Shown here piece after piece: positions 186 through 60,216 of a DNA stretch of 64,000 nt (within the stretch, counting starts at the first letter, position 1; every line of letters starts with the position of its first letter). The notes below the pieces were generated by a model, which was not told the DNA's origin, ran no database searches, and saw only the letters and a list, made by a program, of their open reading frames with translations. The DNA is from Nitrospiraceae bacterium (lineage in GTDB: Bacteria > Nitrospirota > Thermodesulfovibrionia > UBA6902), in the NCBI GenBank assembly GCA_003599025.1, contig QZIL01000043.1, positions 2,630 through 66,629 of the forward strand, written 5' to 3'. The translations under genes were made by a program, and so were the position numbers.

Positions 186-411
186 ATTTCAAGAAAGTGT
201 ATCTATTGCATTTGACTATCAAAAGTCTTCAGCATAATACGAAAGAAGGTTAATTATAATTATCATGCCCTTCCCCAGAGCTTAGATTTATGTTTTAAAA
301 AGCAATATTAGTCCAACGCAGTAATATTCCTGATAATCGCATGATTAGTAATGTAAATATCCATATTGCATCTGTTTGATTATTTGACACAAATAAGTAT
401 AATAGTGGGCA

Positions 412-1398
412 ATGCATAGGGACTCATTGATATTAAGCACTATTATCTCTGTCATTCTGCTCCCCCTGTTAATATTATTGTCACCTTCAGAATCATTCAG
501 TGAACACACCAAGGGTAAAACATATCTTACAGGCATTATAAGACCTAATGTCAAACTACAGAATATTGTGGACGGTTTTAAGGCCGGAATGGAGCTTTAC
601 GGTTTCAGGGAAGGTGAGAACATATCCTATATCCAGACAAATGATATCAGTGATATAGACTCTGTAGTCGAGAAAATGATTGAAATGAAGGTCGATCTGA
701 TATTCACAATGACTGCCGATACTACAAGAAAGACACTGAAGAAACTGGCAGGCAGGCCGGTCCCTGTTATTTTCGGAGGGATTTATGACCCGATTGCATC
801 CGGTATAGTAAAGAGCCTCTCAGTCCCCGGCGACAACGTTACCGGCGTCATGATCGGCGGCAGCACTGAAAAGGCCTTTGAATGGCTGCTGAAAGCCGTT
901 CCTCATGCAAAAAAAATATATGTCCCCTTTTCTTCGGAGTCTGATACTGTTGCCATATGCATGAGTGTTTTAAAAAAGAGCGCTGAGAAGTCCCGCGTTG
1001 AACTTATGACATCAAAAACCGATACACTGCATGAATTGACAGTGGCACTGGCCTCAATACCCGGAAAAGCGGATGCCATATTCATTCCCAACTCGCCATT
1101 TCTGATTACCAATCTTGAAACTATCATCAAGTTTGCAGCAGAACATAAATTGCCGACCGGCTCAGGAACAGGGCAGTACAAAAACGGCATAATGATCACT
1201 TACGGACAGGACCATTTTTACACAGGGAAGATAGCAAGCCGGCTCGCCAGCAGCGTCCTGCATGACAGAATTCCTGCTGCTTCTCTGCCTGTAGAGACAA
1301 CAGAGTATTTTCTCGGCATCAATTTACAGACAGCAACGACTGTCGGCATTACAGTCCCTGACAGCATCTTGCAGCAGGCAAGTTTCATAGTACGCTAA
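412..1398 (+). CDS. Periplasmic solute-binding protein, ABC_sub_bind (COG2984-like) family, with no cognate permease or ATPase
   Basis: 328-aa ORF with an N-terminal signal/TM segment (LILSTIISVILLPLLILL). Family-typical motifs are DNVTGV and the C-terminal LPVE..YFLGINLQTA..VGITVP. The stop lies 31 nt upstream of a Cache-type kinase gene. Confidence 0.8.
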   Translation: MHRDSLILSTIISVILLPLLILLSPSESFSEHTKGKTYLTGIIRPNVKLQNIVDGFKAGMELYGFREGENISYIQTNDISDIDSVVEKMIEMKVDLIFTMTADTTRKTLKKLAGRPVPVIFGGIYDPIASGIVKSLSVPGDNVTGVMIGGSTEKAFEWLLKAVPHAKKIYVPFSSESDTVAICMSVLKKSAEKSRVELMTSKTDTLHELTVALASIPGKADAIFIPNSPFLITNLETIIKFAAEHKLPTGSGTGQYKNGIMITYGQDHFYTGKIASRLASSVLHDRIPAASLPVETTEYFLGINLQTATTVGITVPDSILQQASFIVR

Positions 1399-1429
1399 AC
1401 TCTAACAATTCAGTCTTCACTCAGACCGT

Positions 1430-3571
1430 ATGAAGATTAAAGTCAGCATAAGAAGACGGCTTGTTTTATCACTGGTACTCCTCGCCATAGTTCCGCTTTT
1501 ATTACTCGGAACACTCCTGTCATGGCAGAGTTATGTAATTCAGCAGAGACAGATCATAGAATTGCAGAACGAGAAAGCCGGTCGTGCCCTGGTCCAGATA
1601 AATTCCACAATATACGGACTGGAAAAGGCCTTATACAATGCGCTTAATATCTACCTCAACATTTTAGATTCAGACATTAGCAAACAGAGGCGCGTTTTAT
1701 CCGAACTGCTCTCCTTACGGGATGAAAAGGGCACAAGCGTCTTCAATGAACTCACACTGATTGATGCTCTCGGACAGGAACTTGCGCGTGAATCACGGAC
1801 CTCTATTATAACTCCCGATGAACTTGTGAGCAGGGCAACATCGGAGGAATTCACTGCCCCGTTATCAAGCAGGAAAACATACTTTGGCCCTGTTTTCATT
1901 GACGGCAAAACAGGTGTTCCGGTGATGCTTTTAAGCGTACCGGTCATTGATGTCCGCAGTGATACTGTGAGAGGTGTACTCGTGGCAGAGATGAAGATGA
2001 AATTCATGTGGGACATAGTGGACAAGATAAATGTCGGCGAATCGGGCCTGGTCTATATTGTCGACACGACAGGCAGGGTAATCGTTCATCCTAATCCCTC
2101 TGTAGTGCTTAAAGAGACCTATTATGATGTAAATATAAGGTCCGGTACCGGAACAGGCCTTGATGGCGGGAAGGCAGTATTGACCCATGATACTCTTCAG
2201 CTCGGCAACAGGCACCTGCATGTGATGACCGAGGTCCCGCTTGAAATTGCGCTGAGAAACACGTACACATCACTGCTTACCATATTTGTATTTCTTGTCC
2301 TCGCCCTTACAGGCTCCATCTATCTCGGTTTCATAATTGTGCGTAAGGTCATACGTCCGGTCGAGTCCCTTGCGGAAACCGCAAAGGCAATAAGTTCAGG
2401 AGATATCAGCAGGAGATCTGATATATCAGGAAACGATGAACTGGGTGCACTGTCTGATTCATTTAATTTAATGACAGGCCGTCTTGCTGAAACGATAACT
2501 TCACTGAAGAGCGAAATTGCAGCGAAAGAAGCCGCTGAAAAAAAGATAAGGCTGGCCTATGAGGAATGGCAGAGGACATTTGACTCCATATCCCAGCCTG
2601 TTTCCATACACGACAGGGAGTACAGGATCATTAGGGCCAACAGGGCCTTCGCGGATTTTTTCAAATTAAGTTACCGGGAGTTACTCGGCAAAAAGTGCTT
2701 TGAACTGTTCCACTGTTCAAACGGACCGATTGCCGGTTGTCCCCATAGAAAGACCCTCGACACCGGTCTGAACTCTTCAGAGGAACTCTTCGAACCGACC
2801 CTTGACAAACACCTGCGCCATACCACATCTCCCATCCTCGATGACAACGGTGATATCACCGGCTCTGTGCATATCGCAGAAGATATTACGGAACGCAAGC
2901 ACACAGAGGAAAAAATTATTGCCTCGCTCAAAGAGAAAGAGGTGCTTCTTAAGGAAGTCCACCACAGGGTAAAGAACAACATGCAGGTCATTTCGAGTCT
3001 TCTGAACCTTCAGGCCAGACAGATAAGCGACAAACAATACGCCGACCTGTTCAATGAGAGCCGCAACAGGATCGCTTCCATGTCCCTTGTACACGAAAAA
3101 CTGTACAACTCAAGGGACCTGGCACATGTTGATTTCAAAGATTATGTCCATACCCTTGTCAACGGACTGTCCGCATCTTACGGTGCGGCCTCAAGCAGAG
3201 TTTTTTTGACAATGTTAATTGAAAACATAACTCTTTCGATTGACACAGCCATCCCGTGCGGCCTGATAATCAATGAACTTGTATCAAATTCCCTCAAGTA
3301 CGCATTTCCCGAAGATAAAAAGGGGGAACTGAAGATAGTCCTTGAAAAAGCGGATTCTGATGAGGACCGCCATTACTACAACCTGATAATCAGCGATAAC
3401 GGTATCGGCATTCCAGAGGACATTGACATACGAAAAACAAAGTCACTCGGCCTGCAGCTTGTCAGCAATCTGGTCGAACACCAGCTTCAGGGGAATATAA
3501 CACTCGACAGGTCGGGAGGGACCCTGTTCCATATTACATTTAGAGAACTGAAATACAAAAACAGGATATAA
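1430..3571 (+). CDS. Sensor histidine kinase: TM-Cache-like periplasmic domain-TM-HAMP-PAS-HisKA_2-HATPase
   Basis: 713-aa ORF. HAMP motif is GNDELGALSDSFNLMTGRL. The PAS domain carries Cys/His motif CFELFHCSNGPIAGCPH. The H-box [27 protein letters not shown] is typical of HisKA_2. ATPase motifs are NELVSNSLKYAF, DNGIGIP and SLGLQLV. Confidence 0.92.
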   Translation: MKIKVSIRRRLVLSLVLLAIVPLLLLGTLLSWQSYVIQQRQIIELQNEKAGRALVQINSTIYGLEKALYNALNIYLNILDSDISKQRRVLSELLSLRDEKGTSVFNELTLIDALGQELARESRTSIITPDELVSRATSEEFTAPLSSRKTYFGPVFIDGKTGVPVMLLSVPVIDVRSDTVRGVLVAEMKMKFMWDIVDKINVGESGLVYIVDTTGRVIVHPNPSVVLKETYYDVNIRSGTGTGLDGGKAVLTHDTLQLGNRHLHVMTEVPLEIALRNTYTSLLTIFVFLVLALTGSIYLGFIIVRKVIRPVESLAETAKAISSGDISRRSDISGNDELGALSDSFNLMTGRLAETITSLKSEIAAKEAAEKKIRLAYEEWQRTFDSISQPVSIHDREYRIIRANRAFADFFKLSYRELLGKKCFELFHCSNGPIAGCPHRKTLDTGLNSSEELFEPTLDKHLRHTTSPILDDNGDITGSVHIAEDITERKHTEEKIIASLKEKEVLLKEVHHRVKNNMQVISSLLNLQARQISDKQYADLFNESRNRIASMSLVHEKLYNSRDLAHVDFKDYVHTLVNGLSASYGAASSRVFLTMLIENITLSIDTAIPCGLIINELVSNSLKYAFPEDKKGELKIVLEKADSDEDRHYYNLIISDNGIGIPEDIDIRKTKSLGLQLVSNLVEHQLQGNITLDRSGGTLFHITFRELKYKNRI

Positions 3572-3586
3572 GGAGGTCGCATCAAC

Positions 3587-4609
3587 ATGGCAGAACGTTC
3601 ATTCATTAAAGCATTCAAGGGTCTTTTGCCGATACTCAGGATAGCCAAAATCACGTTAATATGCCTTGTCGTGCCGTTGCTGTTTGCATCTTCTGTTATT
3701 TCGGGGAAAAACGTGCGGGGTCCGGCGTTCTCCGGTCCGGACAACCTCATGGAGATGCCGGCTGACTGGCAGGAAAGGACGGTAAAGCATGAGTCGGCAG
3801 ACGCTGACCTTGTGGTGACCCTCGACGGCCAGATGTATCACGCATGGGAACCGATCATTCAAAAATATGCTAAAGAAAACAGCCTTAAAATAGTCGTGAA
3901 CAACGGGACCTGCGGAGTAGCAGCCGGAGGGCTTACGCAGAAATCAATCGACATGGGGGTGTTCTGCTGCCCCCCTGACAGGACAGACAGGCTCCCTGGC
4001 GTTCGTTTCCATACACTCGGCATAGCAGCCATTGCACTGATTATTCATCCTGATAATCCGCACGACAATGTGACACTTGAGCAGGCACGTCAGTTGTTCG
4101 GAGGGGCACAGCGCAACTGGTCCGGCACAACCTTAAAAAAAGAGACTCTGGTGCTGCCCGTAGGCAGACTTCACTGCAAATTAAGGCCGGGACACTGGCG
4201 GTTACTGCTCGATAACAAAGAACTGTTCAGCCCTGACCTCTTTGAAGTGGGCGCCATGCCGGACATGATCGCCAAGGTAGCTGCCAATCCCGGCGCAATA
4301 GGCTATGAGACCTTATGGATGATGCGTTACTATGAGGACCGGGGCAGGACCAGGTTTCTGAAGATAAACGGATACAGTCCCGACGACCCTGCCAATGTAG
4401 TGTCCCTTAAATATCCCTTATACCGTGTCTACAGTTACGCTGTCTGGGAAGGCCGCAATCTCGAAAAGCCGCATGCCCGGAAACTTGGGGAATATCTGAT
4501 GCAGCAGGCTGAGCAGCTTGAGGCAAAATACAGCTTTATCCCTGCGTCCGCTTTAAGAAAGGCAGGCTGGAAATTCAGGGGCAATGAACTTACAGGAGAA
4601 CCTGAATAA
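3587..4609 (+). CDS. PstS-like (PBP_like_2) periplasmic binding protein
   Basis: 340-aa ORF with an N-terminal hydrophobic anchor. The motif VTLEQARQLFGG..RNWS is characteristic of the phosphate-binding-protein-like fold. Its 3' end overlaps the next kinase gene. Confidence 0.7.
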   Translation: MAERSFIKAFKGLLPILRIAKITLICLVVPLLFASSVISGKNVRGPAFSGPDNLMEMPADWQERTVKHESADADLVVTLDGQMYHAWEPIIQKYAKENSLKIVVNNGTCGVAAGGLTQKSIDMGVFCCPPDRTDRLPGVRFHTLGIAAIALIIHPDNPHDNVTLEQARQLFGGAQRNWSGTTLKKETLVLPVGRLHCKLRPGHWRLLLDNKELFSPDLFEVGAMPDMIAKVAANPGAIGYETLWMMRYYEDRGRTRFLKINGYSPDDPANVVSLKYPLYRVYSYAVWEGRNLEKPHARKLGEYLMQQAEQLEAKYSFIPASALRKAGWKFRGNELTGEPE

Positions 4610-6800
4610 GGAAATGAACACACTTCATGACCGGAACAGCAAGGCGGACACTGCCACCGGCACCACACCGGTCCGTGAGTTTTTGAACCGCGTCCCGCTT
4701 ACCCTGAAAATGGTCCTGATCACAACTCTTCTCGGTATCTGCCTGTGGGCTGTGATGGAGTATATACAGAGCGCCAGGCTGAAAAAGATATTTTACGTCC
4801 AGATGTTCGACAAAATTTCGGAGCAGTCCATGGAGTGGCGGATAAGTCTCGACCAGTACATAAGGTTCCATCATGAAACTGCAGAGATCATTGTTTCTCA
4901 AAAGGCATTCAGCGATTATGTAAACAGCAGGAGATGGAGCAGTGCCGATGAAGAGGTCAGGTATTATGCTCAACCTCCTGCATGGTTGCTGAGGCCCTCC
5001 ATATTACGATCACTTGTCCGTCCAAGATACGCCACGCTGCTTGACGCTGACGGAAGGGTCAGGGAGATATATTCGCGGCATGACGACAGGATTTCAGCAT
5101 CCGAACTGCTTCACCCGTCAGCGCTCTGGCTGTCAAAAAGCAGGGAGCAGAGCTTCGTAACGAAAATCGATAACCTGCATTATGTCATTACATCGGAACC
5201 ATTGTACGACCCTCACGGGAAATTACAGGCAACTGTGATGCTCGCTTCTCCCATTGACGAAGAGTTCCTTGTCTCGGCAATAGGCATTCTTCAGCCCGGC
5301 TATCTTATGGCGCTTGTCGATCATAAAGAAGACCCGACCGTCCTGATCAGTAACAATCATTCGGTATTGCCGCCGGGAACGCACATTCATGATCTCGGGG
5401 ACCGTTTTCTCGTCACAGGTCAGGACACATACAATTACGGAGCGGCTGAATATATGATAAATCTGGTCTCACTGATTTCACGTACAGAAGCTGATAAGTT
5501 GACCGACTCGGTGATATCGACCGGAAGATACCAGCGCAATATAATTGCTCCGGCATTTATCCTGACCTTCGCTGCTATTATGGTTTATATCACAAGGAGA
5601 ATAAGCAGGTTGAATAAGCGCATGTCCGATTTTTCGAGGCAGACCCTGGGTATGAAGACAGAGGAACTGCCAAAAGGGGACAAACTGTACCTGCTCGAAA
5701 AGAGATTTGAACGCCTCAAAGGGGAAGTGGCCGAAGCGCGTGAGATCATTAAGAAGCAGGCGGAAGAAAAAACAGTCAAAGAGTCCCATGAAAGGCTCCT
5801 TACAGTCCTGAACGGCCTTGAAGCGATTGTTTATGTCGCCGACATGCAAACACATGAACTGCTGTTCGCAAATAACTATACCCAGAAAATATTCGGAGAT
5901 ATAGAGGGCAGAATATGCTGGCAGACCATTCAGTCCGGGCAGTCAGGACCATGTGATTTCTGCTCAAATGAAAAACTGCTTACCCCTGCCGGTGAACCGT
6001 CAGGCGTTTACACCTGGGAATTCCAGAATACATTCAACGGCAGATGGTATTACATTCAGGACCGGGCCATCAAGTGGATTGACGGGCGGATTGTCAGAAT
6101 GGAAATAGCGACCGATATGACAGAGCGAAAGCAGTCTGAGAACCAGGTAAAAGAATCACTCTATGAGAAAGAGGTCCTGCTGAAGGAAATCCATCACAGG
6201 GTAAAGAACAACATGCAGGTCATTTCGAGCCTGCTTAATATCCAGTCCGGAAAGCTCAAAGGCAGGCCGGAAGCCGAGGTCTTCAATGAAAGCCGCAACC
6301 GAATAACAGCGATGGCCCTTGTCCACGAAAAACTCTACAGTTCGGACAGCCTCGCAAGAATTGACTTAAGCGACTATATAAAAAGCCTTGTGAACAGCCT
6401 GTTTGCATTTTACGGGAAAAGCCCGAGGAATATTTCTGTAACCGTGCATGCAGACAGCATCTTTCTCGGAATCGACACGGCCATACCATGCGGCCTGATA
6501 ATTAATGAACTGGTCTCAAATTCCATGAAATATGCATTCCCGGATGACAGGAACGGTGAAATATCCATTCGGATGGAGGACATTTCCTCCACTGCCCGGT
6601 GGGACTACGAACTTACGGTCAGTGATAACGGGACAGGAATCCCTGAAGATATGGACATAAGAGAAACTGCTTCTCTCGGACTTCAGCTTGTCACCAATCT
6701 TACAGAGCATCAATTGCAGGGCACTGTGGAATTGCTGAGAAACAGCGGCACTGAATTCCGTATTCACTTCATCGAGCCAAAATATAAAAACCGGGCATAA
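4584..6800 (+). CDS. Sensor histidine kinase: TM-large periplasmic domain-TM-coiled coil-PAS-HisKA_2-HATPase
   Basis: 738-aa ORF with two TM segments flanking a ~300-aa domain of unknown family. The PAS domain carries CWQTIQSGQSGPCDFC. H-box is [27 protein letters not shown]. An alternative start at 4614 (MNTLH) would remove the overlap with the upstream gene. Confidence 0.9.
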   Translation: MNLQENLNKEMNTLHDRNSKADTATGTTPVREFLNRVPLTLKMVLITTLLGICLWAVMEYIQSARLKKIFYVQMFDKISEQSMEWRISLDQYIRFHHETAEIIVSQKAFSDYVNSRRWSSADEEVRYYAQPPAWLLRPSILRSLVRPRYATLLDADGRVREIYSRHDDRISASELLHPSALWLSKSREQSFVTKIDNLHYVITSEPLYDPHGKLQATVMLASPIDEEFLVSAIGILQPGYLMALVDHKEDPTVLISNNHSVLPPGTHIHDLGDRFLVTGQDTYNYGAAEYMINLVSLISRTEADKLTDSVISTGRYQRNIIAPAFILTFAAIMVYITRRISRLNKRMSDFSRQTLGMKTEELPKGDKLYLLEKRFERLKGEVAEAREIIKKQAEEKTVKESHERLLTVLNGLEAIVYVADMQTHELLFANNYTQKIFGDIEGRICWQTIQSGQSGPCDFCSNEKLLTPAGEPSGVYTWEFQNTFNGRWYYIQDRAIKWIDGRIVRMEIATDMTERKQSENQVKESLYEKEVLLKEIHHRVKNNMQVISSLLNIQSGKLKGRPEAEVFNESRNRITAMALVHEKLYSSDSLARIDLSDYIKSLVNSLFAFYGKSPRNISVTVHADSIFLGIDTAIPCGLIINELVSNSMKYAFPDDRNGEISIRMEDISSTARWDYELTVSDNGTGIPEDMDIRETASLGLQLVTNLTEHQLQGTVELLRNSGTEFRIHFIEPKYKNRA

Positions 6801-6824
6801 CGTCATATTTTACTTTATGCCCGG
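6791..6824 (+). terminator. Hairpin overlapping the stop codon of the kinase gene (weak terminator candidate)
   Basis: CCGGGCATAA (6791-6800) pairs perfectly with TTATGCCCGG (6815-6824) around a 14-nt loop. No T-tract follows, so terminator function is uncertain. Confidence 0.3.
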
Positions 6825-6932
6825 CAGTGTAATAACTTATACTTGGTAAACCTATAAAAACAAGACAGGTGCTTAGAACCTGCTAAAAGAAGTTCAATCG
6901 TTAAATTAAGGGAGTTCCGGATTCTTGGGCAT

Positions 6933-8435
6933 ATGGGACCACTCGGTAAGATATTGGTCAATCAGATAGATGTAGTATTCTTTATCTACGGACTCGCCTT
7001 CATAATAATGGGGCTTGCTATCCTGCTCCAGCCCAAAAAGGACAGCGAGCATAAGATCGCTGACATCTTCTGGCTCCTGGCATTGTTCGGAATCACTCAT
7101 GGTGTAAATGAACTCCTTGATATGTGGGCCATTATAAGGGGCCGTCACGATGTACTGGATGCTTTCCGCTGGTTATGTCTTGTTATATCATATCTCTTTC
7201 TTTTCGAGTTCGGCAGGCGGTTTTTCTCCCTGAATACAGCAACGGCGCCTGCCTGGCAGAGAAAGGCAGCCGGCCTTTTCGGATGGTGGTCGCTTCCTAT
7301 TATAACTCTTGCGATTTTTGCCGGTGCATACATCTCTGATGATTTCTGGAAGACAGGGAGCATCCTGGCCAGATATTCACTGGGCCTTCCGGGCGGGCTA
7401 ATGATAGGCTTAGGCTTTCTGTTTCAGTACAGACATGAAAAAGAAGTTTTAGGAAAGCTGGGGGTGAAGTTATATTTCATGTCTGCAGGAGGAGCGTTCG
7501 TGACTTACGGGATACTGGGTGGGCTGATCGTCCCAAAGGCTGCCTTTTTCCCTGCAAACTTACTCAATACGGAATCCTTTATCGCAACAGCAGGGATGCC
7601 TGTCCAGGTACTGCGGGCAGTATGCGCCCTTGCAGCTGCCTGGTCTGTAAGCGGAATCCTGAAGATATTTAACTGGGAGATGAGAGAAAGGCTGCAGAAA
7701 CGCTCTGACAGGCTTCAGGCTGTAAATAAGGAACTACAGGTTGAGATTGCTGAACGCAGACTCGCACAGGAGCAGCTTAACGCTTCACTCAGGGAAAAAG
7801 AGGTCCTGCTTAAAGAAATATATCACAGGACCAAGAACAACATGCAGGTCATTACCAGTTTGCTGAATCTCCAGTCCACCCAGATTGACGATCCCCGCTA
7901 CGTTACGCTGTTTGACGACAGCCGCAACAGGATAGCCTCAATGGCCCTTGTTCATGAAAAACTCTACCGCTCGAAAAACCTTTCGAACATCGATTTTAAG
8001 GACTATGTATCAAGTCTCGCAAACGGCCTTCTCACCTTCTACGGCAAAAGCGCCAGAAGCGTCTCATTTACCGTAAATGCCGGAGGGATCGTTCTGGGCA
8101 TCGACACGGTCATTCCCTGCGGCCTTATCATCAACGAACTAGTTTCAAACTCACTCAAGCACGCATTCCCTGAAGGCAGAGGCGGAAGGATATTGATAGA
8201 ACTTAATAATACATATGCTGGTGAGAATCGGAACAGTGAATATGAGCTGACTGTAGGTGATGACGGTATCGGACTTTCAAAAGATATTGATATCAGGAAT
8301 ACAAAATCCCTTGGATTACAGCTTGTCACCAATCTCACCATGCATCAGCTCAGGGGAAGCATTGAATTACGCAGGAATGAAGGTACTGTTTTTAATATCC
8401 GTTTCAGGGAACTCAAATATAATGACCGGTTATAA
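6933..8435 (+). CDS. Membrane-integral sensor histidine kinase (multi-TM N-terminal domain + HisKA_2 + HATPase)
   Basis: 500-aa ORF. About 250 aa of repeated hydrophobic helices are followed by a coiled coil, then the H-box EKEVLLKEIYHRTKNNMQVITSLLNLQ and ATPase motifs NELVSNSLKHAF and DDGIGL. Confidence 0.88.
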   Translation: MGPLGKILVNQIDVVFFIYGLAFIIMGLAILLQPKKDSEHKIADIFWLLALFGITHGVNELLDMWAIIRGRHDVLDAFRWLCLVISYLFLFEFGRRFFSLNTATAPAWQRKAAGLFGWWSLPIITLAIFAGAYISDDFWKTGSILARYSLGLPGGLMIGLGFLFQYRHEKEVLGKLGVKLYFMSAGGAFVTYGILGGLIVPKAAFFPANLLNTESFIATAGMPVQVLRAVCALAAAWSVSGILKIFNWEMRERLQKRSDRLQAVNKELQVEIAERRLAQEQLNASLREKEVLLKEIYHRTKNNMQVITSLLNLQSTQIDDPRYVTLFDDSRNRIASMALVHEKLYRSKNLSNIDFKDYVSSLANGLLTFYGKSARSVSFTVNAGGIVLGIDTVIPCGLIINELVSNSLKHAFPEGRGGRILIELNNTYAGENRNSEYELTVGDDGIGLSKDIDIRNTKSLGLQLVTNLTMHQLRGSIELRRNEGTVFNIRFRELKYNDRL

Positions 8436-8462
8436 TACACGCCATATTAAAGGAGAACCTCA

Positions 8463-10118
8463 GTGGAAAAAGCAAAAATATTAATCGTAGAAGATGAAGC
8501 CATTATCGCAAAGGACCTGCAGTGGAGACTGGAAGGGATGGGATATGATGCACCTTTGATAGTGGCTACAGGAAAAGAGGCCGTTGATAAAGCACATGCC
8601 ATCAGGCCTGATCTTATTTTAATGGACATCATGCTGCTCGGGCCAATGGACGGCATTGAGGCCTCCAAACAAATCCGCTCAGAGATCGACATACCGATCA
8701 TATATCTCACTGCATACGCAGACGAAGAAGTGCTGGAAAGGGCCAAGATAACCGGGCCCTTCGGATATCTCATCAAACCCATTGGAGACAGGGAGCTGCA
8801 CAGCAATATCGAAATAACCCTTCACAAGCACAGAGTAGACAAAAAATTACGTGAGAATGAAAAATGGCTTTTCACTGTGCTCACCAGTATTGGCGATGCA
8901 GTCATAAGCACAGATACAAACGGACACATTCTGTTTATGAACCCGGCAGCTGAAGTCCTTACGGGCTGGAAAGAAGAGGAGGTCTCAGGCAGGACGCTCG
9001 AAGATATCTTTAATATCATAAACGAAAAAACAGGAGATAAGGTCGAAAGCCCTGTTCAGAAAGTGCTGAGACAGGGCACAGTGGTGGGTCTTGCAAATAA
9101 TACGATATTGATTACCAGAAACGGGACAAGGATCCCGATCGATGACAGCGGCTCTCCGATAAAAGATGAAAAAGGCAATATACTGGGAGTGGTCATGGTT
9201 TTTTCCGATATCAGCACAAGGAGAAGGGCGGAAACACTGCTTATGCAGTCCAAGAAGGATTGGGAAGACACCTTTAATACAATTACGGACATGATCACGA
9301 TCCACGACAAGGATTTCAATATCATCAGGGCCAACAGGGCGGCTGAAAAGATACTTGGGCTGCCCCTGCTTAACACATCAAAGGCAGAGTGTTTCAGATA
9401 TTACCATGGAACAGCCAATCCGCCCCGGAGCTGCCCGAGCTGTGAGTGCCTTAAAACGGGTGAACCGTCAACATTTGAAATTTACGAACCTCATCTGAAC
9501 ATGTACCTTGAACTGAGGGCCATGCCGAGGTTTGACAGCAACAATAATCTTATCGGGTTGATACATGTTGCCAGGGACATTAGTGAAAGGAAAAAGATAG
9601 AGGAGGAGATAAAGAGGGCAAAGGTTGAATGGGAGATGACATTTGACAGCGCGAATGAATTTATAGTGCTCGTTGACAGGGGACTGAATATATCGCGGTG
9701 CAATAAAAGCTTTGCCAGGTTCGTAAAAAAATCCATCGACGAAATCATCGGAAAGAAGTGTTCCCTGTTTTTTCCCTGTGATGCTGTGAGGAACGATGAA
9801 TCAAAATCTGCCTCGAACATCGAGATTAAAACCGATACAGGCCACTGGCTCTACCTGAGTTCGTATTCAATCCTTGATGAGAAGGGCGAATTCCTCCACA
9901 CGATTATCATGGCAACAGATATAACTGATATGAAAAATACCCAGCAGAGACTCCTGAAGTCTGAGGATGAACTCATATCCAGAGTCAAGGAGCTTGAAGA
10001 TTTCTATGAAATGGCTGTTGGCAGGGAGCTGAAGATGAAGGAACTTAAAAGCGAGATCTCGAAGCTGAAAAAGGTGCTCGCAAAGGAAAAGGAATCAACA
10101 GAAAAAATTGATTCTTAA
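8463..10118 (+). CDS. Response regulator: REC + three PAS domains + C-terminal coiled coil, no enzymatic or DNA-binding output
   Basis: 551-aa ORF with a GTG start. REC motifs are ILIVEDE, DLILMDIMLLGPMDG and GYLIKP. PAS-like segments include one with CFRYYHGTANPPRSCPSCEC. The protein ends in ELEDFYEMAVGRELKMKELKSEISKLKK. Confidence 0.9.
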   Translation: MEKAKILIVEDEAIIAKDLQWRLEGMGYDAPLIVATGKEAVDKAHAIRPDLILMDIMLLGPMDGIEASKQIRSEIDIPIIYLTAYADEEVLERAKITGPFGYLIKPIGDRELHSNIEITLHKHRVDKKLRENEKWLFTVLTSIGDAVISTDTNGHILFMNPAAEVLTGWKEEEVSGRTLEDIFNIINEKTGDKVESPVQKVLRQGTVVGLANNTILITRNGTRIPIDDSGSPIKDEKGNILGVVMVFSDISTRRRAETLLMQSKKDWEDTFNTITDMITIHDKDFNIIRANRAAEKILGLPLLNTSKAECFRYYHGTANPPRSCPSCECLKTGEPSTFEIYEPHLNMYLELRAMPRFDSNNNLIGLIHVARDISERKKIEEEIKRAKVEWEMTFDSANEFIVLVDRGLNISRCNKSFARFVKKSIDEIIGKKCSLFFPCDAVRNDESKSASNIEIKTDTGHWLYLSSYSILDEKGEFLHTIIMATDITDMKNTQQRLLKSEDELISRVKELEDFYEMAVGRELKMKELKSEISKLKKVLAKEKESTEKIDS

Positions 10119-10163
10119 ATCAACTGAATTGCAGTCAGTAATTACTCTTAACTGGAAGGAACA

Positions 10164-12227
10164 ATGATCAAGGTCCTCCTTACACTATTGCTAACTTTGC
10201 TTACCTGTATCTCAAACGCTTCTGCTTTTGACACCGCAGCGCTCCAAACAGAGACTGCAGAGGAGCTTCTCTTCTTCTTTGAGGAGGAGGAGCTTGTGAT
10301 CGCAACAAGGAGCACGATCCCTGTCAGAAAGGCTCCGGCAATAGCCACGGTCATCACCGCCCAGGAAATAAGGAACATGGGAGCAAGGAACACTCTTGAT
10401 GTGCTAAAGACAGTCCCCGGCTTTGGCGTGTCCACCACCGAATTCAACCTGAAGATGCTTGAGGTCCGGGGGATACTGACACAGCTGTCCGAAAAGGTCC
10501 TCTTCATGATCGACAGCCACCGTGTAAACCTCCATTGGAACGGAAGCGCGCTTTATCAGATCGTCAATACCATCCCTGTAGAGAACATAAAAAGGATTGA
10601 GGTCATCAGGGGGCCTGGTTCAGTACTGTACGGCGCAAACGCCTTTGTCGCGGTAATAAATATTGTCACAAAAGAAGCTGAAGATATAAAGGGCATTCAA
10701 CTGACTGCGGGAGGAGGAAGTTTTGATACAGAGCATTACAACCTTCTGTACGGGCATAACGGGCAGAAATTAAAAATCATGGGCAGTCTCGACTATTACG
10801 ATACGGACGGGGCCAGGATCAGAATTGAGGAAGATGCGCTCACCGGAACCCCTTTTACAAAAACCCCCGGAACAACCCGTCTCGGAGAGGAAAAGACCGA
10901 CCTGTTTTTAAAGGCGTCATACGGCGACCTGTCATTTCGCGGGCACTATCAGCAGGAACGGAATGAACAGTATATCGGAATGGGTTATGCGCTCACGGAT
11001 GAAAGTTATCATAAGCAGACCAGCTACTGGCTTGAACTGGACTACAACCTCAATATCACCAATGACCTCTCTTCACATATAAAAATACATCTGGACAATT
11101 TCAGGCAGGAACCCCATGTCAAAATCATGCCGGATGGTTTTGCCGGCATGTTCCCCAGCGGGATGATCGGGCAGCCCTTTCTCAGGAACAGGAGTATGGG
11201 GGGTGAACTTCAGGTGGATTATGACATATGGGACAATAATCACTTGACAGCCGGAGCCTACTACGAAAAGGTAAAGCAGTATGACGTAAAGCATTATACC
11301 AACTTCGATCCCCGTGTCTTTCCTCCTGTTCCCGTAGACCTCGGCCCTGTTCAGAATGTGTCATCGTGGGCGAACTGGAACCAGGACACCAAAAGAGAGA
11401 TCTGGGCGTTTTATGTTCAGGATGAGTGGGAAATCATTGATAACTTAAATCTCACTGCAGGCCTGCGGCATGACCACTACAGCGATTTCGGAGATACGAC
11501 GAATCCGAGGGTCGGTATCGTATGGGGCTTTTGGGAGAAGGCTGATTTAAAGCTTCTGTACGGCAAGGCGTTCAGGGCCCCGAATTTTGTTGAGCTATAC
11601 AACCGCAATAATCCTGTCAATGTCGGCAATACTGACTTGAAGCCCGAAATGATCACTACGTACGAGGCAAGCATCGGTTTTAAACCCGCAAGGCCATTTA
11701 CGGTTGATCTTAATTATTTCTACAGTGATATTCAGGACCTGATAATCTGGAACTCTCAATCACCTGCGGTCCACGTGAATGCAGGGGAAGCCAAAGTCAA
11801 CGGCATCGAACTTGTGATGACCGGGAAGTACACGTCTGAAAATTACTGGAAACTGTCCTACACATATCAGGACCCTGAAGACTCTGCCACCGGAGAGAGA
11901 TTGCCATATGTTCCTTTACACCGGGCTTCCGCAAATATAAATTACGGCCTTACTAAATATCTGAACGTGCATACCGATGTGTTATGGACAGGCGAACGGT
12001 CGAGACCGGAGGGTGACACGAGAGACCCTGTGGCTTCTTATACTACAGTTGATCTAGCATTAATATTAAAGAACTTTTACAGGACCCTTGAGATACAGGG
12101 TACAGTCCATAATCTCTTTGATGAGGATTATGAAGACCCCGATACATCAGGTGATAAACAGTACATTACCGGTGATTTCCCGAGAGAAGGGATTTCCGGG
12201 ATGATAAGTGTCAGTTATAAATTTTGA
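10164..12227 (+). CDS. TonB-dependent outer-membrane receptor (paralogue 1)
   Basis: 687-aa ORF with a signal peptide. Plug motifs are VIATRSTIPVRKAPAIATVITAQEIRNMGARN and IEVIRGPGSVLYGANAF. The barrel has alternating beta-strands and the C-terminal residue is aromatic (..SYKF). Confidence 0.93.
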   Translation: MIKVLLTLLLTLLTCISNASAFDTAALQTETAEELLFFFEEEELVIATRSTIPVRKAPAIATVITAQEIRNMGARNTLDVLKTVPGFGVSTTEFNLKMLEVRGILTQLSEKVLFMIDSHRVNLHWNGSALYQIVNTIPVENIKRIEVIRGPGSVLYGANAFVAVINIVTKEAEDIKGIQLTAGGGSFDTEHYNLLYGHNGQKLKIMGSLDYYDTDGARIRIEEDALTGTPFTKTPGTTRLGEEKTDLFLKASYGDLSFRGHYQQERNEQYIGMGYALTDESYHKQTSYWLELDYNLNITNDLSSHIKIHLDNFRQEPHVKIMPDGFAGMFPSGMIGQPFLRNRSMGGELQVDYDIWDNNHLTAGAYYEKVKQYDVKHYTNFDPRVFPPVPVDLGPVQNVSSWANWNQDTKREIWAFYVQDEWEIIDNLNLTAGLRHDHYSDFGDTTNPRVGIVWGFWEKADLKLLYGKAFRAPNFVELYNRNNPVNVGNTDLKPEMITTYEASIGFKPARPFTVDLNYFYSDIQDLIIWNSQSPAVHVNAGEAKVNGIELVMTGKYTSENYWKLSYTYQDPEDSATGERLPYVPLHRASANINYGLTKYLNVHTDVLWTGERSRPEGDTRDPVASYTTVDLALILKNFYRTLEIQGTVHNLFDEDYEDPDTSGDKQYITGDFPREGISGMISVSYKF

Positions 12228-12282
12228 TAAACAGTATATAACGTACGCAGACTACTACTCATGGTTCATAATACTTTTTGCC

Positions 12283-12352
12283 GTCATTCCTGGGAAAACA
12301 GGAATCCAGCTTTATTAAGAAGTTACTGGATACCCGCTTTCACGGGTATGAC
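12283..12352. repeat. Compound hairpin repeat, GTCATTCC family (copy B)
   Basis: Sequence reads GTCATTCCTGGgaaaaCAGGAATCC - TTTATTAAG - GGATACCCGctttcaCGGGTATGAC. The two-hairpin layout and central TTTATTAAG match copy A. Confidence 0.7.
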
Positions 12353-12393
12353 ATCATTCTTACACATTAAGGCATACTGCAACAGCCTGACAA

Positions 12394-14427
12394 ATGGAGA
12401 ACAGAATGAATAAATTCCTATTTACTATCTTAATCTTATTGATTACCTGTTCAGCTTCCTTTGCCCTTGAGTTTGCGGAACTCCGGACCGAAACAGCCGA
12501 AGAGCTTCTTTTTTTCTACGAGCAGGAAGAGCTTGTTATTGCTACAAGGCAGTCAATTCCCGTAAGCAAGGCCCCCGCCATAGCTACAGTCATTACAGAC
12601 AGGGAGATACGGAACATGGGGGCAAGGACCCTGTTTGATATTCTAAAGAGGGTTCCGGGCATAGGGGTCTCCATAGCTAACGTTGCAGTGTATCACACCA
12701 TTGAAGTAAGAGGGGTAAAGTCCCTTAACAGCGAAAAAGTACTCATCATGGTTGACGGCCACAGGATTAATGAAGAGATGCATGGCTCTTCGGCTTTTTT
12801 CTTCGGGTATATGTCGGTTGACAGCATAAAAAGAGTCGAAATAATCAGGGGGCCCGGCTCTGCTCTTTATGGAGCCAACGCCTTTTTAGCTGTAATCAAT
12901 ATTATCACCAAAGAGGCAGCAGACATAAAAGGGCTTCAGGTCACTGCAGGAACTGGAAGCTTTGATACACAGCACTACAACATTCTGTTCGGATATGACG
13001 CCGAGAAGTTAAAGATATCAGGCTTTATTGACTACCTTGATACAAACGGACCTTCTTCATTTATAGAGCAGGATGCTGCAGGTGAATCAGGTGATACGCT
13101 TGAGTGGCAGGAAAGACCGGACATGGGACTTTCCATTTCTTATGACGACCTTACTCTGAGAGTGCGGTATCTCAGGAATGAAATGGGACCAATTATCGGT
13201 GCTGGTTCCGCCCTTAATGACGAATCGGTCCAGGACTGGGGCCAGTACTATGCCGATCTCTCCTATAACAAGGGCATAACTGAATATCTCGATATAACAA
13301 CAAGGCTGTATTACGACCAGGTCATTTTAAACCCATACTGGGAACTGTTCTCCGAAGGCTTCAGAGGGATTTATCCCGATGGACTGCTGGGCAACCCTGA
13401 ATCAAAGCACAGGAAACTGGGCGGTGAGATTACAACAGATTACTCTTTGTCCGATCACCTGATCACGGCAGGGGTCATGTATGAACATGTTAAGCAGTAT
13501 GATGTGCATTCTTTCGGTAATTTTCACCCTATAACTTTTGCTCCTCAGGACTACGAGGAGACAGCCAACTTTAACAGGAATGTGAAGAGAGAGATCTTTG
13601 GACTCTATGTTCAGGATGTCTGGGATGTTATGGACACTATGTCATTGACAGCCGGAATTCGGTATGACCATTATTCCGATTTTGGGGAGACCACAAACCC
13701 GAGGGCAGGACTTGTATGGGAATTTATAGAGAATACGTCTCTAAAGATGCTGTATGGCAGTGCCTTCATAGCCCCTAATTTCTCCCAGCTCTACCACGCT
13801 AACAACCCATCACTCATCGGGAACCCGGAACTTGATCCCGAGACAATCCATACTTACGAGATTGGCATTGAACACCGTTTCCTTGAAAAATATACTGCAA
13901 GACTAAACTACTTCTACAACGAAATATCAGACATAATTGTAAGCGGCGAGAAACCTTCTCCAACAGAGCCAGCGCAATACAAAAACAGGGATGAGGCCGA
14001 AATAGACGGCATTGAAGCGGAACTGCACTTTGATTTCGGCCATGATAATTACGGTCATTTGAATTACAGTTATCAGCATCCGGTTGATGATAATACAGGA
14101 CAGAGGCTGCCCGATGTCCCGGCCCACAGGGCGAATGCGGAGATCAATTACGCGCCGTGGAAATATCTGAACACAAATGTGAGCGTATCCTGGGTCGGGA
14201 AAAGATACAGAGACGACAGGGACACGAGGGATGATCTGCCCGCTGAAACACTGGTCGACCTGACGCTGATCGCGAAGAACTTTTATAGGACACTGCAAAT
14301 CAGGGGATCGGTCTACAATCTCTTTGATGAAAATTACCTCGACCCCAATCCATATCCGGGACAGGTGCCCAATGACTATCCGGCAAACAAACGGATGTTT
14401 ATGTTTGAGGCAAGGTATACATTTTAA
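12394..14427 (+). CDS. TonB-dependent outer-membrane receptor (paralogue 2)
   Basis: 677-aa ORF. The plug is nearly identical to paralogue 1 (ETAEELLFFYEQEELVIATRQSIPVSKAPAIATVIT, IEIIRGPGSALYGANAF). It ends ..ARYTF. Confidence 0.93.
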   Translation: MENRMNKFLFTILILLITCSASFALEFAELRTETAEELLFFYEQEELVIATRQSIPVSKAPAIATVITDREIRNMGARTLFDILKRVPGIGVSIANVAVYHTIEVRGVKSLNSEKVLIMVDGHRINEEMHGSSAFFFGYMSVDSIKRVEIIRGPGSALYGANAFLAVINIITKEAADIKGLQVTAGTGSFDTQHYNILFGYDAEKLKISGFIDYLDTNGPSSFIEQDAAGESGDTLEWQERPDMGLSISYDDLTLRVRYLRNEMGPIIGAGSALNDESVQDWGQYYADLSYNKGITEYLDITTRLYYDQVILNPYWELFSEGFRGIYPDGLLGNPESKHRKLGGEITTDYSLSDHLITAGVMYEHVKQYDVHSFGNFHPITFAPQDYEETANFNRNVKREIFGLYVQDVWDVMDTMSLTAGIRYDHYSDFGETTNPRAGLVWEFIENTSLKMLYGSAFIAPNFSQLYHANNPSLIGNPELDPETIHTYEIGIEHRFLEKYTARLNYFYNEISDIIVSGEKPSPTEPAQYKNRDEAEIDGIEAELHFDFGHDNYGHLNYSYQHPVDDNTGQRLPDVPAHRANAEINYAPWKYLNTNVSVSWVGKRYRDDRDTRDDLPAETLVDLTLIAKNFYRTLQIRGSVYNLFDENYLDPNPYPGQVPNDYPANKRMFMFEARYTF

Positions 14428-14462
14428 ATGTTAAAATACGGAATCAGGTTATTAGTGAACAT

Positions 14463-15365
14463 ATGAGGGGACCCGTGCTGAAGCATAATTATAAATTATT
14501 TATTATTCTGACTGCTCTCATGGCGGTCCCTCTGTCTGTCTGGACTGTGGAGTCGGCTGACCTGCTAATTATAGGTGACACAAAGCTCAAGCCGGTGTCG
14601 GACTTAATCGCGGGGATAGAAGAGGACTTATCATATTCAGCAACGGTCAGGTCTCCGGCAGATGTGAAGGACAATTTTGAAGGTATTATTCAAAGTGAAG
14701 GCGCAAAGGCTGTGGTGGCACTTGGTCAGGACGCTGTCAATGTCTCGCTGTCGCTGCCCGAATCAATTCCGGTCATTTACGGTCTTATTATTAATCCCCC
14801 TGAAACTTCTAGAAGAAACATGACAGGTGTTTATATGGCAACACCTGTTAGTGAATATATATCTTTTATAAATAAGTATTTCCCTGCCATTAAACGGATC
14901 GGAATAATATGTGAGCCCAGAACCAGGGACCTTGTGTGCCAGGGGGCGGTCCCGGCAAATGCTGTGTTTTACTATGCGACAAATCCATATGAATTCATCT
15001 CCGCCGTAAGCGGAATGCGAAACAATGTAGATGCGCTGCTGCTGCTTCCGGAGAAAAACCTCCTCTCCCAGACCGCTCTTGAGAAGGCGTATCTCTATTC
15101 CTTCAGGGACAACATCCCTGTCATCGGCATTTCTGAAAAATACGTTAAAACCGGCTCCCTCTTTTCTCTCGGTTTCGACGCTGCTGACATGGAAAGACAG
15201 CTCGCAAATCTCATTGTAAAGGTGCTTACTCGAGGGAAAGCAGCAGGCATGCCACAATCTGCTCCTGAAAAATTCACCCTGTATATAAACAGAAAAACAG
15301 CGGAAGCCACAGGTGTTCATGTCCCGCCTGTACTTCTTAATATGGCTGAAAGGGTATATCCATAA
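14463..15365 (+). CDS. Periplasmic solute-binding protein, ABC_sub_bind-like, with no cognate permease or ATPase
   Basis: 300-aa ORF with a signal peptide. Motifs are RNMTGVY and the C-terminal [18 protein letters not shown]. Its stop overlaps the start of the next kinase by 1 nt (TAATG). Confidence 0.75.
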
Positions 15366-17308
15366 TGGCGTTTCTTGCAGGCACGATAAACAAAATCATA
15401 AGCGAGATACTGCCGAAGCGTTTTAATACCATAAGAATAAAACTGCTTGTTGTGGCCGTTGCCGGGCTTGTGCTTGCCTCAATTATCTACACAATTGATT
15501 CTGTCAGGTCTGAACAGGCGATCATGAGAAAAGAGATCGACAAAAAAGTGGAGGTTGTGACCAGGCTTGCCACAAATTTAGGGGAACTTCCGCTCCTGTC
15601 AAGAAATCCGGAGCTTATGCAAAGGACCCTCGCATCCCTTAAGAATGTTGCAGATGTATCATATGCTGCGTTCTACGACTTTGATATGAATCTGCTCGAA
15701 CAAACCGGCGATACCCCCCTCCCCGTCTGCGATCATCCCCGCAAACCGGACATGTCGTTTGTGGAAGGACCGCACTATATCGATCTTTGTGCGCCTGTAT
15801 TTAGTATCAGGGCGGGTGAGGACATCGGTATCTTTCGCGATGATGCTGCCATGGACACAAGAGATCAGGTCGGATGGATACGGATCGGGTTCTCCAAGGC
15901 TTATCTGAATGAGGCCCAGCAGTCGATCATCTTAAGAGGGGTCCTGATAGCGCTTATTTTTACCTTCCTGAGCAGTCTGCTCGTATACAAATTGACTGCA
16001 GCAGCTACAAAACCCCTTACCCTGCTGTCAGGCGCGGTACAGAGCGTCAGGGACGGCAGATATCCCGAGTTGTCTGTCTCCTCCGGAGATGAAGTGGGCA
16101 TACTCACTTCCGAGTTTAACAGGATGAGCAGGTCAATAAGCGAAAGAGAGGAGATGCTGGTAACACGAGCCAGACTGTCTTCCTTTGTCTCTGACATCGG
16201 TTTTGTTCTGACTGAAGGCGCTCCACTCCGGACAACACTTCAGCACTGCACAGAAATTATTGTTACTCAGATTGACTCAGCGCTGGTGCGCATATGGACA
16301 TTCGACCTTGAAGAAAATGCTTTCGTTCTGCAGGCCAGCTCCGGCATATATACTCCGGCAGACAGCCCGGTCAGCCGACTTCCTGCTGATGGGTCCACAC
16401 TCTGGACCGCCGCTGAGCAACTACAGCCTCAATTTGCCAACTCGGTCCATATACTTAATGCCGCGGAACGGGAATGGGCAGATAAAGCAGGGATCGTCTC
16501 TTTTGCGATTTTTCCCCTGGCAATAGAATCCAGGCTCGTCGGCATGCTCGAAATATATTCAGGAAGGCAGCTGCTTAATGAAACATTTACAACACTGGAT
16601 ACTGTAGCAGACCAGATTGCCATAGGCATACAGCGAAAGCTTGCGGAGCAGCACATCGAGGCCTCACTCGTGGAAAAAGAAGTCCTGCTCAGGGAGATAC
16701 ACCACAGGGTCAAAAACAACATGCAGGTTATATCGAGTCTGCTGAACTTTCAGACCCGTTATGTTAATGATAAACAGTTCATCACTATCCTTAATGAAAG
16801 CCAGAACCGCATTAAATCCATGGCCCTTATACACGAAAAGCTGTACCGGTCCAGTGACCTGGCAAATGTAGACTTCAATGATTACATCACAAACCTCTCA
16901 CATGATCTGTTTAAATTTTACGGAGTGGATACGGACAGGATCACCCTTAAGCTCGACCTGCAAAGGATTGCCTTTGAAATCGATACCGCCATCCCCTGCG
17001 GCCTGCTGGTAAATGAACTCCTTACCAATTCCCTGAAGCATGCGTTCCCGGATGGAAGAAGGGGGGAAATACATATAATCCTCAGGGAGAAGAACGCTGA
17101 TAAAGGCAGCCATTATGAAATGACTGTAAGTGACAACGGCATCGGAATACCTGCAGATCTTGATATCACAAAAACAAAATCATTAGGTTTACAGCTGATC
17201 CACACTTTATCAGAACATCAGCTCCAGGGCCGACTGGACCTGGACAGATCAAACGGGACTACATTTCATATCACCTTCAGGAAGCTAAAGTACAAAAAAA
17301 GGATTTAA
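15365..17308 (+). CDS. Sensor histidine kinase: TM-periplasmic domain-TM-HAMP-GAF-HisKA_2-HATPase
   Basis: 647-aa ORF. HAMP motif is [23 protein letters not shown]-like block reads VRIWTFD...[21 protein letters not shown]-box is [27 protein letters not shown]. ATPase motifs are [12 protein letters not shown] and DNGIGIP. Confidence 0.92.
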
Positions 17309-17320
17309 TCAAGTCGTTAA

Positions 17321-17443
17321 AAGGATTCAAGGATTCAAGGAGTCGAGATAAAATCCGGTTTTTAGTTTTCGGACTATAGATCAGAAAACAGCGAACAACT
17401 TTATTATCACTTGACCCCTTGGACCCTCGAATCCTTGGACCCT
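17321..17443. repeat. Periodic-arm hairpin element (8-mer arrays in inverted orientation)
   Basis: The left arm is AAGGATTC AAGGATTC AAGGAGTC. The reverse complement of the right arm is AGGGTCC AAGGATTC GAGGGTCC AAGGGGTC. The arms flank a ~60-nt centre. The element lies in the convergent gap between the kinase gene and ftsZ. Confidence 0.65.
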
Positions 17444-56537: not shown

Positions 56538-56550
56538 TGACAGTACAAAA

Positions 56551-60215: not shown

Positions 60216-60216
60216 T

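Follow-up and report, generated by a model that had tools for sequence, protein, structure and literature searches.

Histidine kinases, solute-binding proteins and two paralogous receivers at a site of changing gene content next to ftsZ in a Nitrospirota bacterium

A block of ten genes at positions 412-17308 of a 64,000-nucleotide (nt) stretch of contig QZIL01000043.1 from a Nitrospiraceae bacterium (this stretch is the window, and its numbering is used throughout) encodes four HisKA_2 histidine kinases (HK1 to HK4), three solute-binding proteins (SBP1 to SBP3), two TonB-dependent receptors (TBDR1 and TBDR2) and REC-PAS3, a receiver protein with three PAS domains. The reading we favour, with a confidence only slightly better than even for the whole of it, is that the block is an old, vertically inherited, ordinary and partly decaying two-component cluster at a fixed site, where modules have been gained, lost and remodelled, and that its kinases, coupled to binding proteins, most likely feed two paralogous receivers. 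The second of these is the N-terminal receiver domain of RHK0, a hybrid kinase encoded at the window's edge. A first-pass annotation of the same sequence had instead described the paralogous expansion of one near-identical transmitter cassette, recombined with many inputs that converge on one regulator. Four paralogues of a single HisKA_2 subfamily with different inputs are indeed present, but neither near-identity nor gene conversion is, and because RHK0 adds a second receiver to the block, the premise of convergence on one regulator is incomplete. The locus leaves the current understanding of two-component signaling unchanged. What it does show is the turnover of a sensory repertoire: at one fixed site close relatives carry 1 to 11 signaling genes, and whole kinase modules, as well as individual PAS or GAF domains, are gained and lost.

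All ten open reading frames (ORFs) lie on the plus strand, where the first-pass annotation had placed them. They and their immediate surroundings are as follows (aa, amino acids; TM, transmembrane segment).

1-38, plus: 3' end of RHK0 (P0196; …QKTREVLDGK, stop), a 760-aa hybrid kinase of architecture REC-PAS-PAS-HisKA-HATPase_c-REC; opens the block and is truncated by the window edge
39-411: AT-rich intergenic region upstream of SBP1, with one sigma-70-like match at 376-403
412-1398, plus: SBP1, secreted ABC_sub_bind (PF04392) solute-binding protein (Pfam E 1.8e-38), proposed co-sensor of HK1
1430-3571, plus: HK1, TM-dCache_1-TM-HAMP-PAS-HisKA_2-HATPase_c (Pfam)
3587-4609, plus: SBP2, PstS/PBP_like_2-like binding protein, under the family cutoffs; 26-nt overlap with HK2
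4584-6800, plus: HK2, TM, putative divergent double-Cache periplasmic domain (about aa 58-318), TM, PAS-like domain, HisKA_2-HATPase_c
6933-8435, plus: HK3, membrane domain (about 270 aa, several TM), then HisKA_2-HATPase_c
8463-10118, plus: REC-PAS3, receiver, three PAS domains and a C-terminal helix; 551 aa
9930-10085, plus: C-terminal helix motif of REC-PAS3 (aa 490-541, …SEDELxxRVKELEDFYEMAVGRELKMKELKSEI…)
10164-12227, plus: TBDR1, TonB-dependent outer-membrane receptor (Pfam, NCBIfam)
12394-14427, plus: TBDR2, TonB-dependent receptor; opens the TBDR-SBP3-HK4 trio
14463-15365, plus: SBP3, secreted ABC_sub_bind protein; its stop codon shares 1 nt with the HK4 start codon
15365-17308, plus: HK4, TM, periplasmic domain of about 145 aa, TM, HAMP-GAF-HisKA_2-HATPase_c
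17507-18655, minus: ftsZ, convergent; closes the dcw cluster and bounds the block on the right

In the mechanism that we propose, ligands would cross the outer membrane, some of them via the TonB-dependent receptors, and would be captured by orphan periplasmic binding proteins. These would bind to the Cache-type domains of HK1, HK2 and HK4, much as LuxP does to LuxQ, while HK3 would sense through its membrane domain. The kinases would autophosphorylate on the HisKA_2 histidine and pass the phosphate to the two similar receiver domains of the block, that of REC-PAS3 and the N-terminal one of RHK0. The sole candidate output of REC-PAS3 is its conserved C-terminal helix, and RHK0 could relay the signal through its own HisKA kinase.

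A fixed site with variable content

Block proteins were mapped onto comparison loci from the genomes and metagenomes of relatives (L-numbers; P-numbers denote proteins). Orthologues of HK3, at 76-78% identity, occur in groundwater and subsurface metagenome-assembled genomes (MAGs) labelled Nitrospirae, Nitrospirota or Thermodesulfovibrionia, and the host is a groundwater bacterium of the Thermodesulfovibrionia (Nitrospirota). A common site, flanked by proS and ftsZ, both on the minus strand, recurs across these relatives with a content that varies from a single gene to 11, and the window holds its fullest version. The following arrangements were found (REC stands for REC-PAS3).

L003: proS, HK3, ftsZ
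L089: proS, RHK0-SBP1-HK1-HK3-REC, ftsZ
L002: RHK0-SBP1-HK1-SBP2-HK2-HK3-REC-TBDR'
L004: SBP2-HK2-HK3-REC
L005: proS, SBP1 remnant-HK3-REC-TBDR remnant-SBP3 remnant-HK4
L006: proS, SBP1 remnant-HK3-TBDR'-SBP3-HK4-REC (2 PAS)

HK3 is the constant core gene of the site, being present in all seven versions of the locus, and the order RHK0-SBP1-HK1…HK3-REC is retained in several genomes. The pair SBP1-HK1 is kept in L002, L089 and L092, the pair SBP2-HK2 in L002 and L004, and the trio TBDR2-SBP3-HK4 in L006, with remnants in L005. The block is made up of separable modules, namely RHK0, SBP1 with HK1, SBP2 with HK2, HK3 with REC-PAS3, TBDR1, and TBDR2 with SBP3 and HK4. Single domains vary as well, in that the HK1 orthologues of L002 and L089 have no PAS domain and the HK4 orthologues of L005 and L006 no GAF domain. 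Remnants of SBP1, of a TonB-dependent receptor and of SBP3 persist at the site in sibling genomes (L005 9715-9840 and 13370-14232; L006 5943-6266), and modules have therefore been lost by deletion from a formerly larger block. Synteny, which the first-pass annotation had recommended checking, thus holds for the site, the gene order and the core genes, whereas the content varies by gain and loss.

The right-hand boundary is stable. The block ends 198 nt from the convergent ftsZ, the last gene of a complete minus-strand dcw cluster, and ftsZ also bounds the site in L003, L089, L091 and L093. REC-PAS3 is convergent with the 3' end of ftsZ, or a few genes from it, in L091, L093, L089 and the window (8463-18655), down to 64% identity and even where it is free of kinases. 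Distant orthologues of REC-PAS3 (64-70% identity) differ in position, and in L092 the gene is found at another place, preceded by SBP1, a frameshifted HK1 and a further HisKA_2 kinase. The HK1 orthologue of that locus (L092 3346-5945) is split by a frameshift inside a PAS domain into ORFs for a 614-aa sensor part and a 206-aa transmitter part, and is either a pseudogene or a sequencing error. An idea suggested by this locus, that a sensor bearing the C-terminal motif described below and a separate transmitter constitute a split kinase, was discarded: the split is a plain frameshift in PAS, and the protein has no such motif.

Gaps between successive genes from SBP1 to HK4 measure 31, 15, -26, 132, 27, 45, 166, 35 and -1 nt. 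The close packing first reported, with gaps of 0-45 nt or overlaps, describes most of these junctions but not the two of 132 and 166 nt. The 26-nt overlap of SBP2 with HK2 and the 1-nt overlap of SBP3 with HK4 may be taken as signs of translational coupling, and we infer that genes of the block are co-transcribed. Promoter and terminator scans returned no more matches than shuffled sequence did, and the sigma-70-like match at 376-403 is a hint only.

Two receivers and the C-terminal helix of REC-PAS3

RHK0 was found as a paralogue of REC-PAS3 on the window's own 69-kb contig, its gene lying 373 nt upstream of SBP1 on the same strand. Proteins identical to those of the block are encoded on the JGI contig Ga0104756_1002650 (L082), where a window position equals the L082 position minus 2629 and where RHK0 continues at L082 385-2667. 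It likewise precedes SBP1 in L002 and L089, at 81% identity. The receiver domain of REC-PAS3 and the N-terminal receiver domain of RHK0 are 71% identical to each other, whereas their identity to the other receivers examined is only 28-35%, and the block holds no receiver beyond these two. The description of REC-PAS3 as the only receiver is accurate within 412-17308; since RHK0, at window positions 1-38, belongs to the same block, it is an artefact of the window boundary.

Orthologues of REC-PAS3, 62-88% identical and uniformly 545-559 aa long, form at least 32 clusters. Pfam recognizes a receiver and three PAS domains in REC-PAS3, in line with the earlier statement that it has no output domain, but the protein ends in a strongly conserved helix motif that this statement passed over. 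A Cys/His-rich motif, C-[FY]-x3-H-x6-9-C-P (for example CFRYYHGTANPPRSCPSCEC), is nearly invariant among the orthologues and suggests a possible metal or cofactor site; it is located in PAS2 of REC-PAS3 (aa 310-329, about 9390-9450), in the PAS domain of HK1 (about 2690-2740), in PAS2 of RHK0 and in L007. Two 41-nt stretches, 2606-2646 in the HK1 PAS and 9300-9340 in PAS2 of REC-PAS3, are 83% identical as DNA, the proteins being 37% identical; the HK1 domain that carries 2606-2646 is the one missing in the L002 and L089 orthologues.

The nearest functional precedent for several kinases sharing a receiver is MrrA of Caulobacter, an output-less receiver fed by several HWE/HisKA_2 kinases (PMC5964349). 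Like the MrrA hub with PhyK and LovK (PMC5964349), the block combines several HisKA_2-family kinases that carry different sensors with a receiver that has no DNA-binding output, and there is no classical regulator beside the kinases. The best NCBIfam model for the kinases is PhyK, and the best receiver-family model for the receiver domain is PhyR, both matched far below cutoff. The systems differ in that the receiver here is a 551-aa REC-PAS3-helix protein rather than a single-domain one, in that the phylum is Nitrospirota, and in that no PhyR/NepR/EcfG module was seen. RHK0, for its part, shares the architecture of hybrid kinases with an N-terminal receiver (REC-PAS-HisKA-HATPase-REC), of which there are many relatives of about 760 aa. 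No Hpt protein or terminal regulator was identified for it in the window.

The alternative that survives best is mere co-location. By this account the site is a tolerant one at which independent sensory modules accumulate and decay, each kinase has its own, perhaps distant, partner, and at most HK3 and REC-PAS3 are cognate. We consider this possible, if rather unlikely. It accommodates the range of content at the site, from 1 to 11 genes with remnants among them, as well as several observations that weigh against a cluster acting as one. REC-PAS3 stands directly against ftsZ in L093 with no kinase beside it, and in L091, where it is two genes away from ftsZ, the nearest 8 kb contain no HisKA_2 kinase; conversely, HK3 is present in L003 without REC-PAS3. 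The partners are therefore not obligately linked. The gaps of 132 and 166 nt may carry separate promoters. The DHp helices of the kinases are conserved throughout the subfamily and are therefore uninformative on the choice of receiver, the rest of the genome could encode further receivers, Hpt proteins and kinases, and the binding proteins could serve transporters encoded elsewhere. Furthermore, 69 of 80 other HisKA_2 loci have just one such transmitter per 20 kb. Co-location alone fits less well with the retention of the order RHK0-SBP1-HK1…HK3-REC in several genomes, or with the pair of closely similar receiver domains in a block that has no others.

The C-terminal helix is the only element of the locus that could open a new question; it occurs on proteins that have no known output domain. 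Residues ~490-541 of REC-PAS3 are highly conserved, with the core …ELExFYEMAVGRELKMKELKxEI…, and are modelled as one continuous helix after PAS3 (AlphaFold2, pLDDT 84 overall). Pfam, NCBIfam and the PDB sequences contain no match to the motif, and the literature yielded no match for the core string GRELKM/GRELRM. When a 52-column profile of the motif was run against 1.84 billion representative proteins, 9,574 matched at E<=1e-3 and 554 at E<=1e-10, and generic coiled coils may be among the lower-scoring of them; nearly every match ends 5-20 residues from the C-terminus. Among 84 longer motif-bearing representatives PAS domains were found in 78, REC in 26, GAF in 16 and HAMP in 5, and no known output domain is included in the 25 most frequent of their 33 Pfam families. 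The motif also ends PAS-only and PAS-GAF proteins, dCache-HAMP-PAS proteins (P0200, P0233) and a protein consisting of an HK2-type sensor and PAS (P0241).

The neighbors of motif-bearing proteins are not uniform. In three of four contexts an HD-GYP protein is encoded no more than two to three genes downstream, in one of these three (L083/L084) as the very next gene, motif proteins stand in tandem at two loci, and HisKA_2 kinases adjoin them in the window and in L077. A general linkage to HisKA_2 kinases was rejected, as only 1 of 75 HisKA_2 loci of other genomes has such a protein. A tentative reading, which we think rather improbable, is that the helix is a widespread and so far undescribed output module that relays by protein-protein contact, with HisKA_2 kinases or HD-GYP phosphodiesterases as candidate targets, and that REC-PAS3 is a phosphorylation-controlled adaptor integrating the four kinases. 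Two observations speak for it: the motif terminates thousands of proteins otherwise made up of input domains (PAS, GAF, REC, HAMP, CHASE, Cache), and it stands where the transmitter would be in HK1-like and HK2-like sensors.

Binding proteins, receptors and sensor domains

The coupling of kinases to binding proteins, as proposed in the favoured reading, is suggested by gene arrangement. The three binding-protein genes each lie next to a membrane-kinase gene or overlap it (gaps of 31, -26 and -1 nt), and their products all have an N-terminal hydrophobic segment. Three pairs of a secreted binding protein and a membrane kinase are thus present with no transporter genes adjacent, and the pairs are conserved in relatives. 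A Cache-type docking domain is recognized in HK1 (dCache_1, Pfam) and modelled in HK2. Similar pairings occur in other phyla, where L013 combines a Phosphonate-bd protein with a HAMP-PAS-HisKA_2 kinase, and L022 an ABC_sub_bind protein with an sCache_4-HAMP-HisKA_2 kinase. Upstream of the HK2-type sensor P0241, L088 has a fragment of a PBP_like_2 gene, and a PBP_like_2 gene is found in the L087 neighborhood.

Binding proteins activate adjacent sensor kinases in several known systems (PMC8050422, PMC11113362, PMC10443332). As in LuxP-LuxQ, TorT-TorS and AgtS/AruS with their adjacent binding-protein genes (PMC8050422, PMC11113362), the gene of a secreted binding protein directly precedes or overlaps that of a membrane kinase, transporters are not adjacent, the periplasmic domains appear to be of the Cache type, and the HK2 model matches LuxQ among double-Cache structures. 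The block differs from these systems in that its binding proteins belong to other families (ABC_sub_bind, PstS-like) and its transmitters are HisKA_2 rather than those of HisKA hybrid kinases. It adds three candidate pairs of binding protein and kinase in a poorly studied phylum.

The earlier description of the neighboring genes was confirmed by Pfam, with three solute-binding proteins, two of them ABC_sub_bind and one weakly PBP_like_2/PstS-like, and two TonB-dependent receptors, which are 48.7% identical over their full length. The order TBDR2-SBP3-HK4 is shared with an NCBIfam trio consisting of a TOL_0244 TonB-dependent receptor, a YfiR-like protein and HK_near_YfiR_like (NF053590, NF053592). 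However, TBDR1 and TBDR2 score 129 and 124 bits against a cutoff of 645, HK4 scores 34 against 194, and the middle protein is ABC_sub_bind rather than YfiR-like. TBDR2-SBP3-HK4 is analogous to that trio and not a member of it. A literature search for trios of TonB-dependent receptor, ABC_sub_bind protein and kinase found nothing specific.

These genes could also be viewed as a nutrient-uptake locus, in which a substrate (a metal complex, a cofactor or an aromatic amino acid) enters by way of the receptors, the binding proteins and a distant ABC transporter, the kinases doing no more than regulating uptake. The receptors are partly similar to NCBIfam models of BtuB, haem and siderophore receptors, SBP2 is PstS-like, and solved ABC_sub_bind structures bind the aromatic amino acids Trp, Tyr or Phe (PMC10443332). 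All of the NCBIfam matches, however, fall far below the family cutoffs; SBP1 scores 120 bits against 390 for a TrpX-like family, and SBP2 scores 39 against 207 for TIGR02136 (21 against 27 for Pfam PBP_like_2). The ORFs of 150 aa or more in the 64-kb window include no ABC permease or ATPase importer, and its annotated ORFs no TonB or ExbB. An Rfam search of 1-18000 returned no element, and the regions upstream of the receptor and binding-protein genes showed no credible riboswitch or other RNA element. The binding-protein genes adjoin kinase genes and not transporter genes. We think it improbable that uptake is the main business of the locus.

The sensor halves of the four kinases are unrelated apart from HAMP and PAS, which bears out the claim of different inputs, and the domains assigned to HK1 (dCache_1-HAMP-PAS), HK3 (multi-TM) and HK4 (HAMP-GAF) stand. 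The remaining one, given as an unknown periplasmic domain of about 300 aa plus PAS in HK2, indeed has no Pfam or NCBIfam match. The region in question, between TM segments at about aa 39-57 and 319-337, nevertheless models as a divergent double-Cache fold, like that of LuxQ and DctB: in a Foldseek search the AlphaFold2 model (12 sequences, mean pLDDT 77) matched DctB, KinD, LuxQ, TlpA and PctA/C at probability 1.0, with target-normalised TM-scores of 0.43-0.55. For the membrane domain of HK3 (6933-7784, aa 1-284) the sole Pfam hint is a sub-threshold match to the ethylene-receptor-like ETR1_N, at 19 bits against a cutoff of 27. The domain contains a conserved GxxHGxNExLxMW helix, also present in L007, L008, L010 and L012. 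No credible Pfam or NCBIfam family match was obtained for the periplasmic domain of HK4; aa 23-258 give a weak full-length match to NF053592 (34 bits), and the HK4 relative in L022 has sCache_4.

Sensor modules are exchanged between outputs, as had been supposed in the first-pass annotation, and this is normal for histidine kinases. The HK2-type sensor is elsewhere joined to HisKA/HATPase, to an adenylate cyclase, to GAF, or to PAS plus the C-terminal motif, and the membrane domain of HK3 is fused in Magnetobacteriaceae to PAS and a different transmitter.

The four transmitters and other features of the window

HK1 to HK4 are predicted HisKA_2 histidine kinases, with autophosphorylation and transfer to a receiver expected from their domains. 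HisKA_2 (PF07568) is matched in all four at 92-106 bits (cutoff 22.3; E 1e-26 to 1e-30) and HATPase_c at 35-47 bits (cutoff 26.4), the H-box E[VI][HY]HR[VT]KNN is visible in each, and the closest PDB sequence match is the HisKA_2 kinase EL346 (4r39/4r3a). The HWE subfamily (PF07536) is marked by a W-x-E motif in the ATP-binding domain. The block's kinases do not belong to it, as HWE_HK scores only 24-32 bits and the G1 region reads SDNGIGIP, without W-x-E.

Over an alignment of about 215 aa from SLxEKEVLL to the stop codon, the four transmitters are 54-62% identical in protein and 62-65% in DNA, values that do not describe a near-identical cassette. The same codon is used at just 45-50% of identical residues, and the longest DNA repeats among the transmitters extend over 263-300 nt at 62-71% identity. 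Comparison of protein with nucleotide identity, the check originally suggested for gene conversion, accordingly revealed no high-identity or conversion tracts, and with this level of identity and codon divergence there is no sign of recent duplication or gene conversion; both were excluded by codon-level identity and a repeat search. The H-box strings are as first quoted, yet they are not specific to the locus: the H-box and most DHp positions are at least 80% conserved among 117 database relatives of the HK1 transmitter from several phyla, and the strings are therefore a property of the subfamily. The C-terminus given as invariant, KYKNR, occurs in only two of the four (KYKNR, KYKNR, KYNDR, KYKKR).

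A search with the HK1 transmitter returned more than 7,800 database proteins at E<=1e-10, one at 78% identity and then hundreds at 55-65%, including proteins named from Nitrospirota, Theionarchaea, Methanobacterium, Dehalococcoidia, KSB1 and Scalindua. For each window kinase the databases contain relatives that equal or exceed its window paralogues in identity, HK4 for example reaching 65.9% with a database relative and at most 61% inside the window. Window pairs average 59% identity. By comparison, 78 transmitters of other GTDB genomes gave 46 +/- 6% (95th percentile 56%), and unlinked same-MAG pairs of other genomes, which were selected for similarity to HK3 and serve as proxies for a same-genome background, gave 43-55%. 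The window pairs thus appear somewhat closer than either set. Because true orthologues in sibling MAGs are 76-83% identical, the duplications predate the divergence of the sibling genomes. We read the four transmitters as probable ancient paralogues of one lineage-enriched, slowly evolving HisKA_2 subfamily. In a neighbor-joining tree they formed, with their orthologues and 11 metagenome proteins, a clade of 24 of 208 sequences; the exact clade was recovered in 0 of 100 bootstrap replicates, only half of which had 5 or fewer outgroup sequences inside it. A robust common clade was therefore not retained.

These figures leave little room for a recent local expansion that would have placed one nearly identical transmitter cassette, copied or homogenised by gene conversion, on different sensors, all of them feeding the single regulator REC-PAS3. 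The co-directional and tightly packed genes, the shared H-box strings and the single-tree clade would be expected from it, but divergence in protein, DNA and codons, the lack of high-identity tracts, the age of the duplications, the family-wide H-box consensus, the instability of the clade under bootstrapping and the second receiver at the window edge all point the other way, and we hold it to be distinctly improbable. A horizontally acquired mobile island is very unlikely and was rejected, for although gene content differs among relatives and a tyrosine recombinase gene is present at 36643-37515, the recombinase is 19 kb off, beyond the dcw cluster, and hence not adjacent, the GC content of the block is that of its flanks, a search of the window found no tRNA, there are no flanking repeats, and the site, gene order and core genes are kept in relatives.

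Further signaling genes lie elsewhere in the window. At 49817-53831 a gene for a 984-aa SSF-transporter-PAS-HisKA kinase overlaps one for a 355-aa REC-sigma54-AAA+ protein, in which Pfam reported no HTH_8. The region 53860-63251 contains a minus-strand ORF6N/Rha-like phage regulatory gene between signaling genes, together with two paralogous cNMP-CBS-DUF294 nucleotidyltransferase genes and genes for an NtrC-type regulator, an RNase T-like exonuclease and an SSF transporter.

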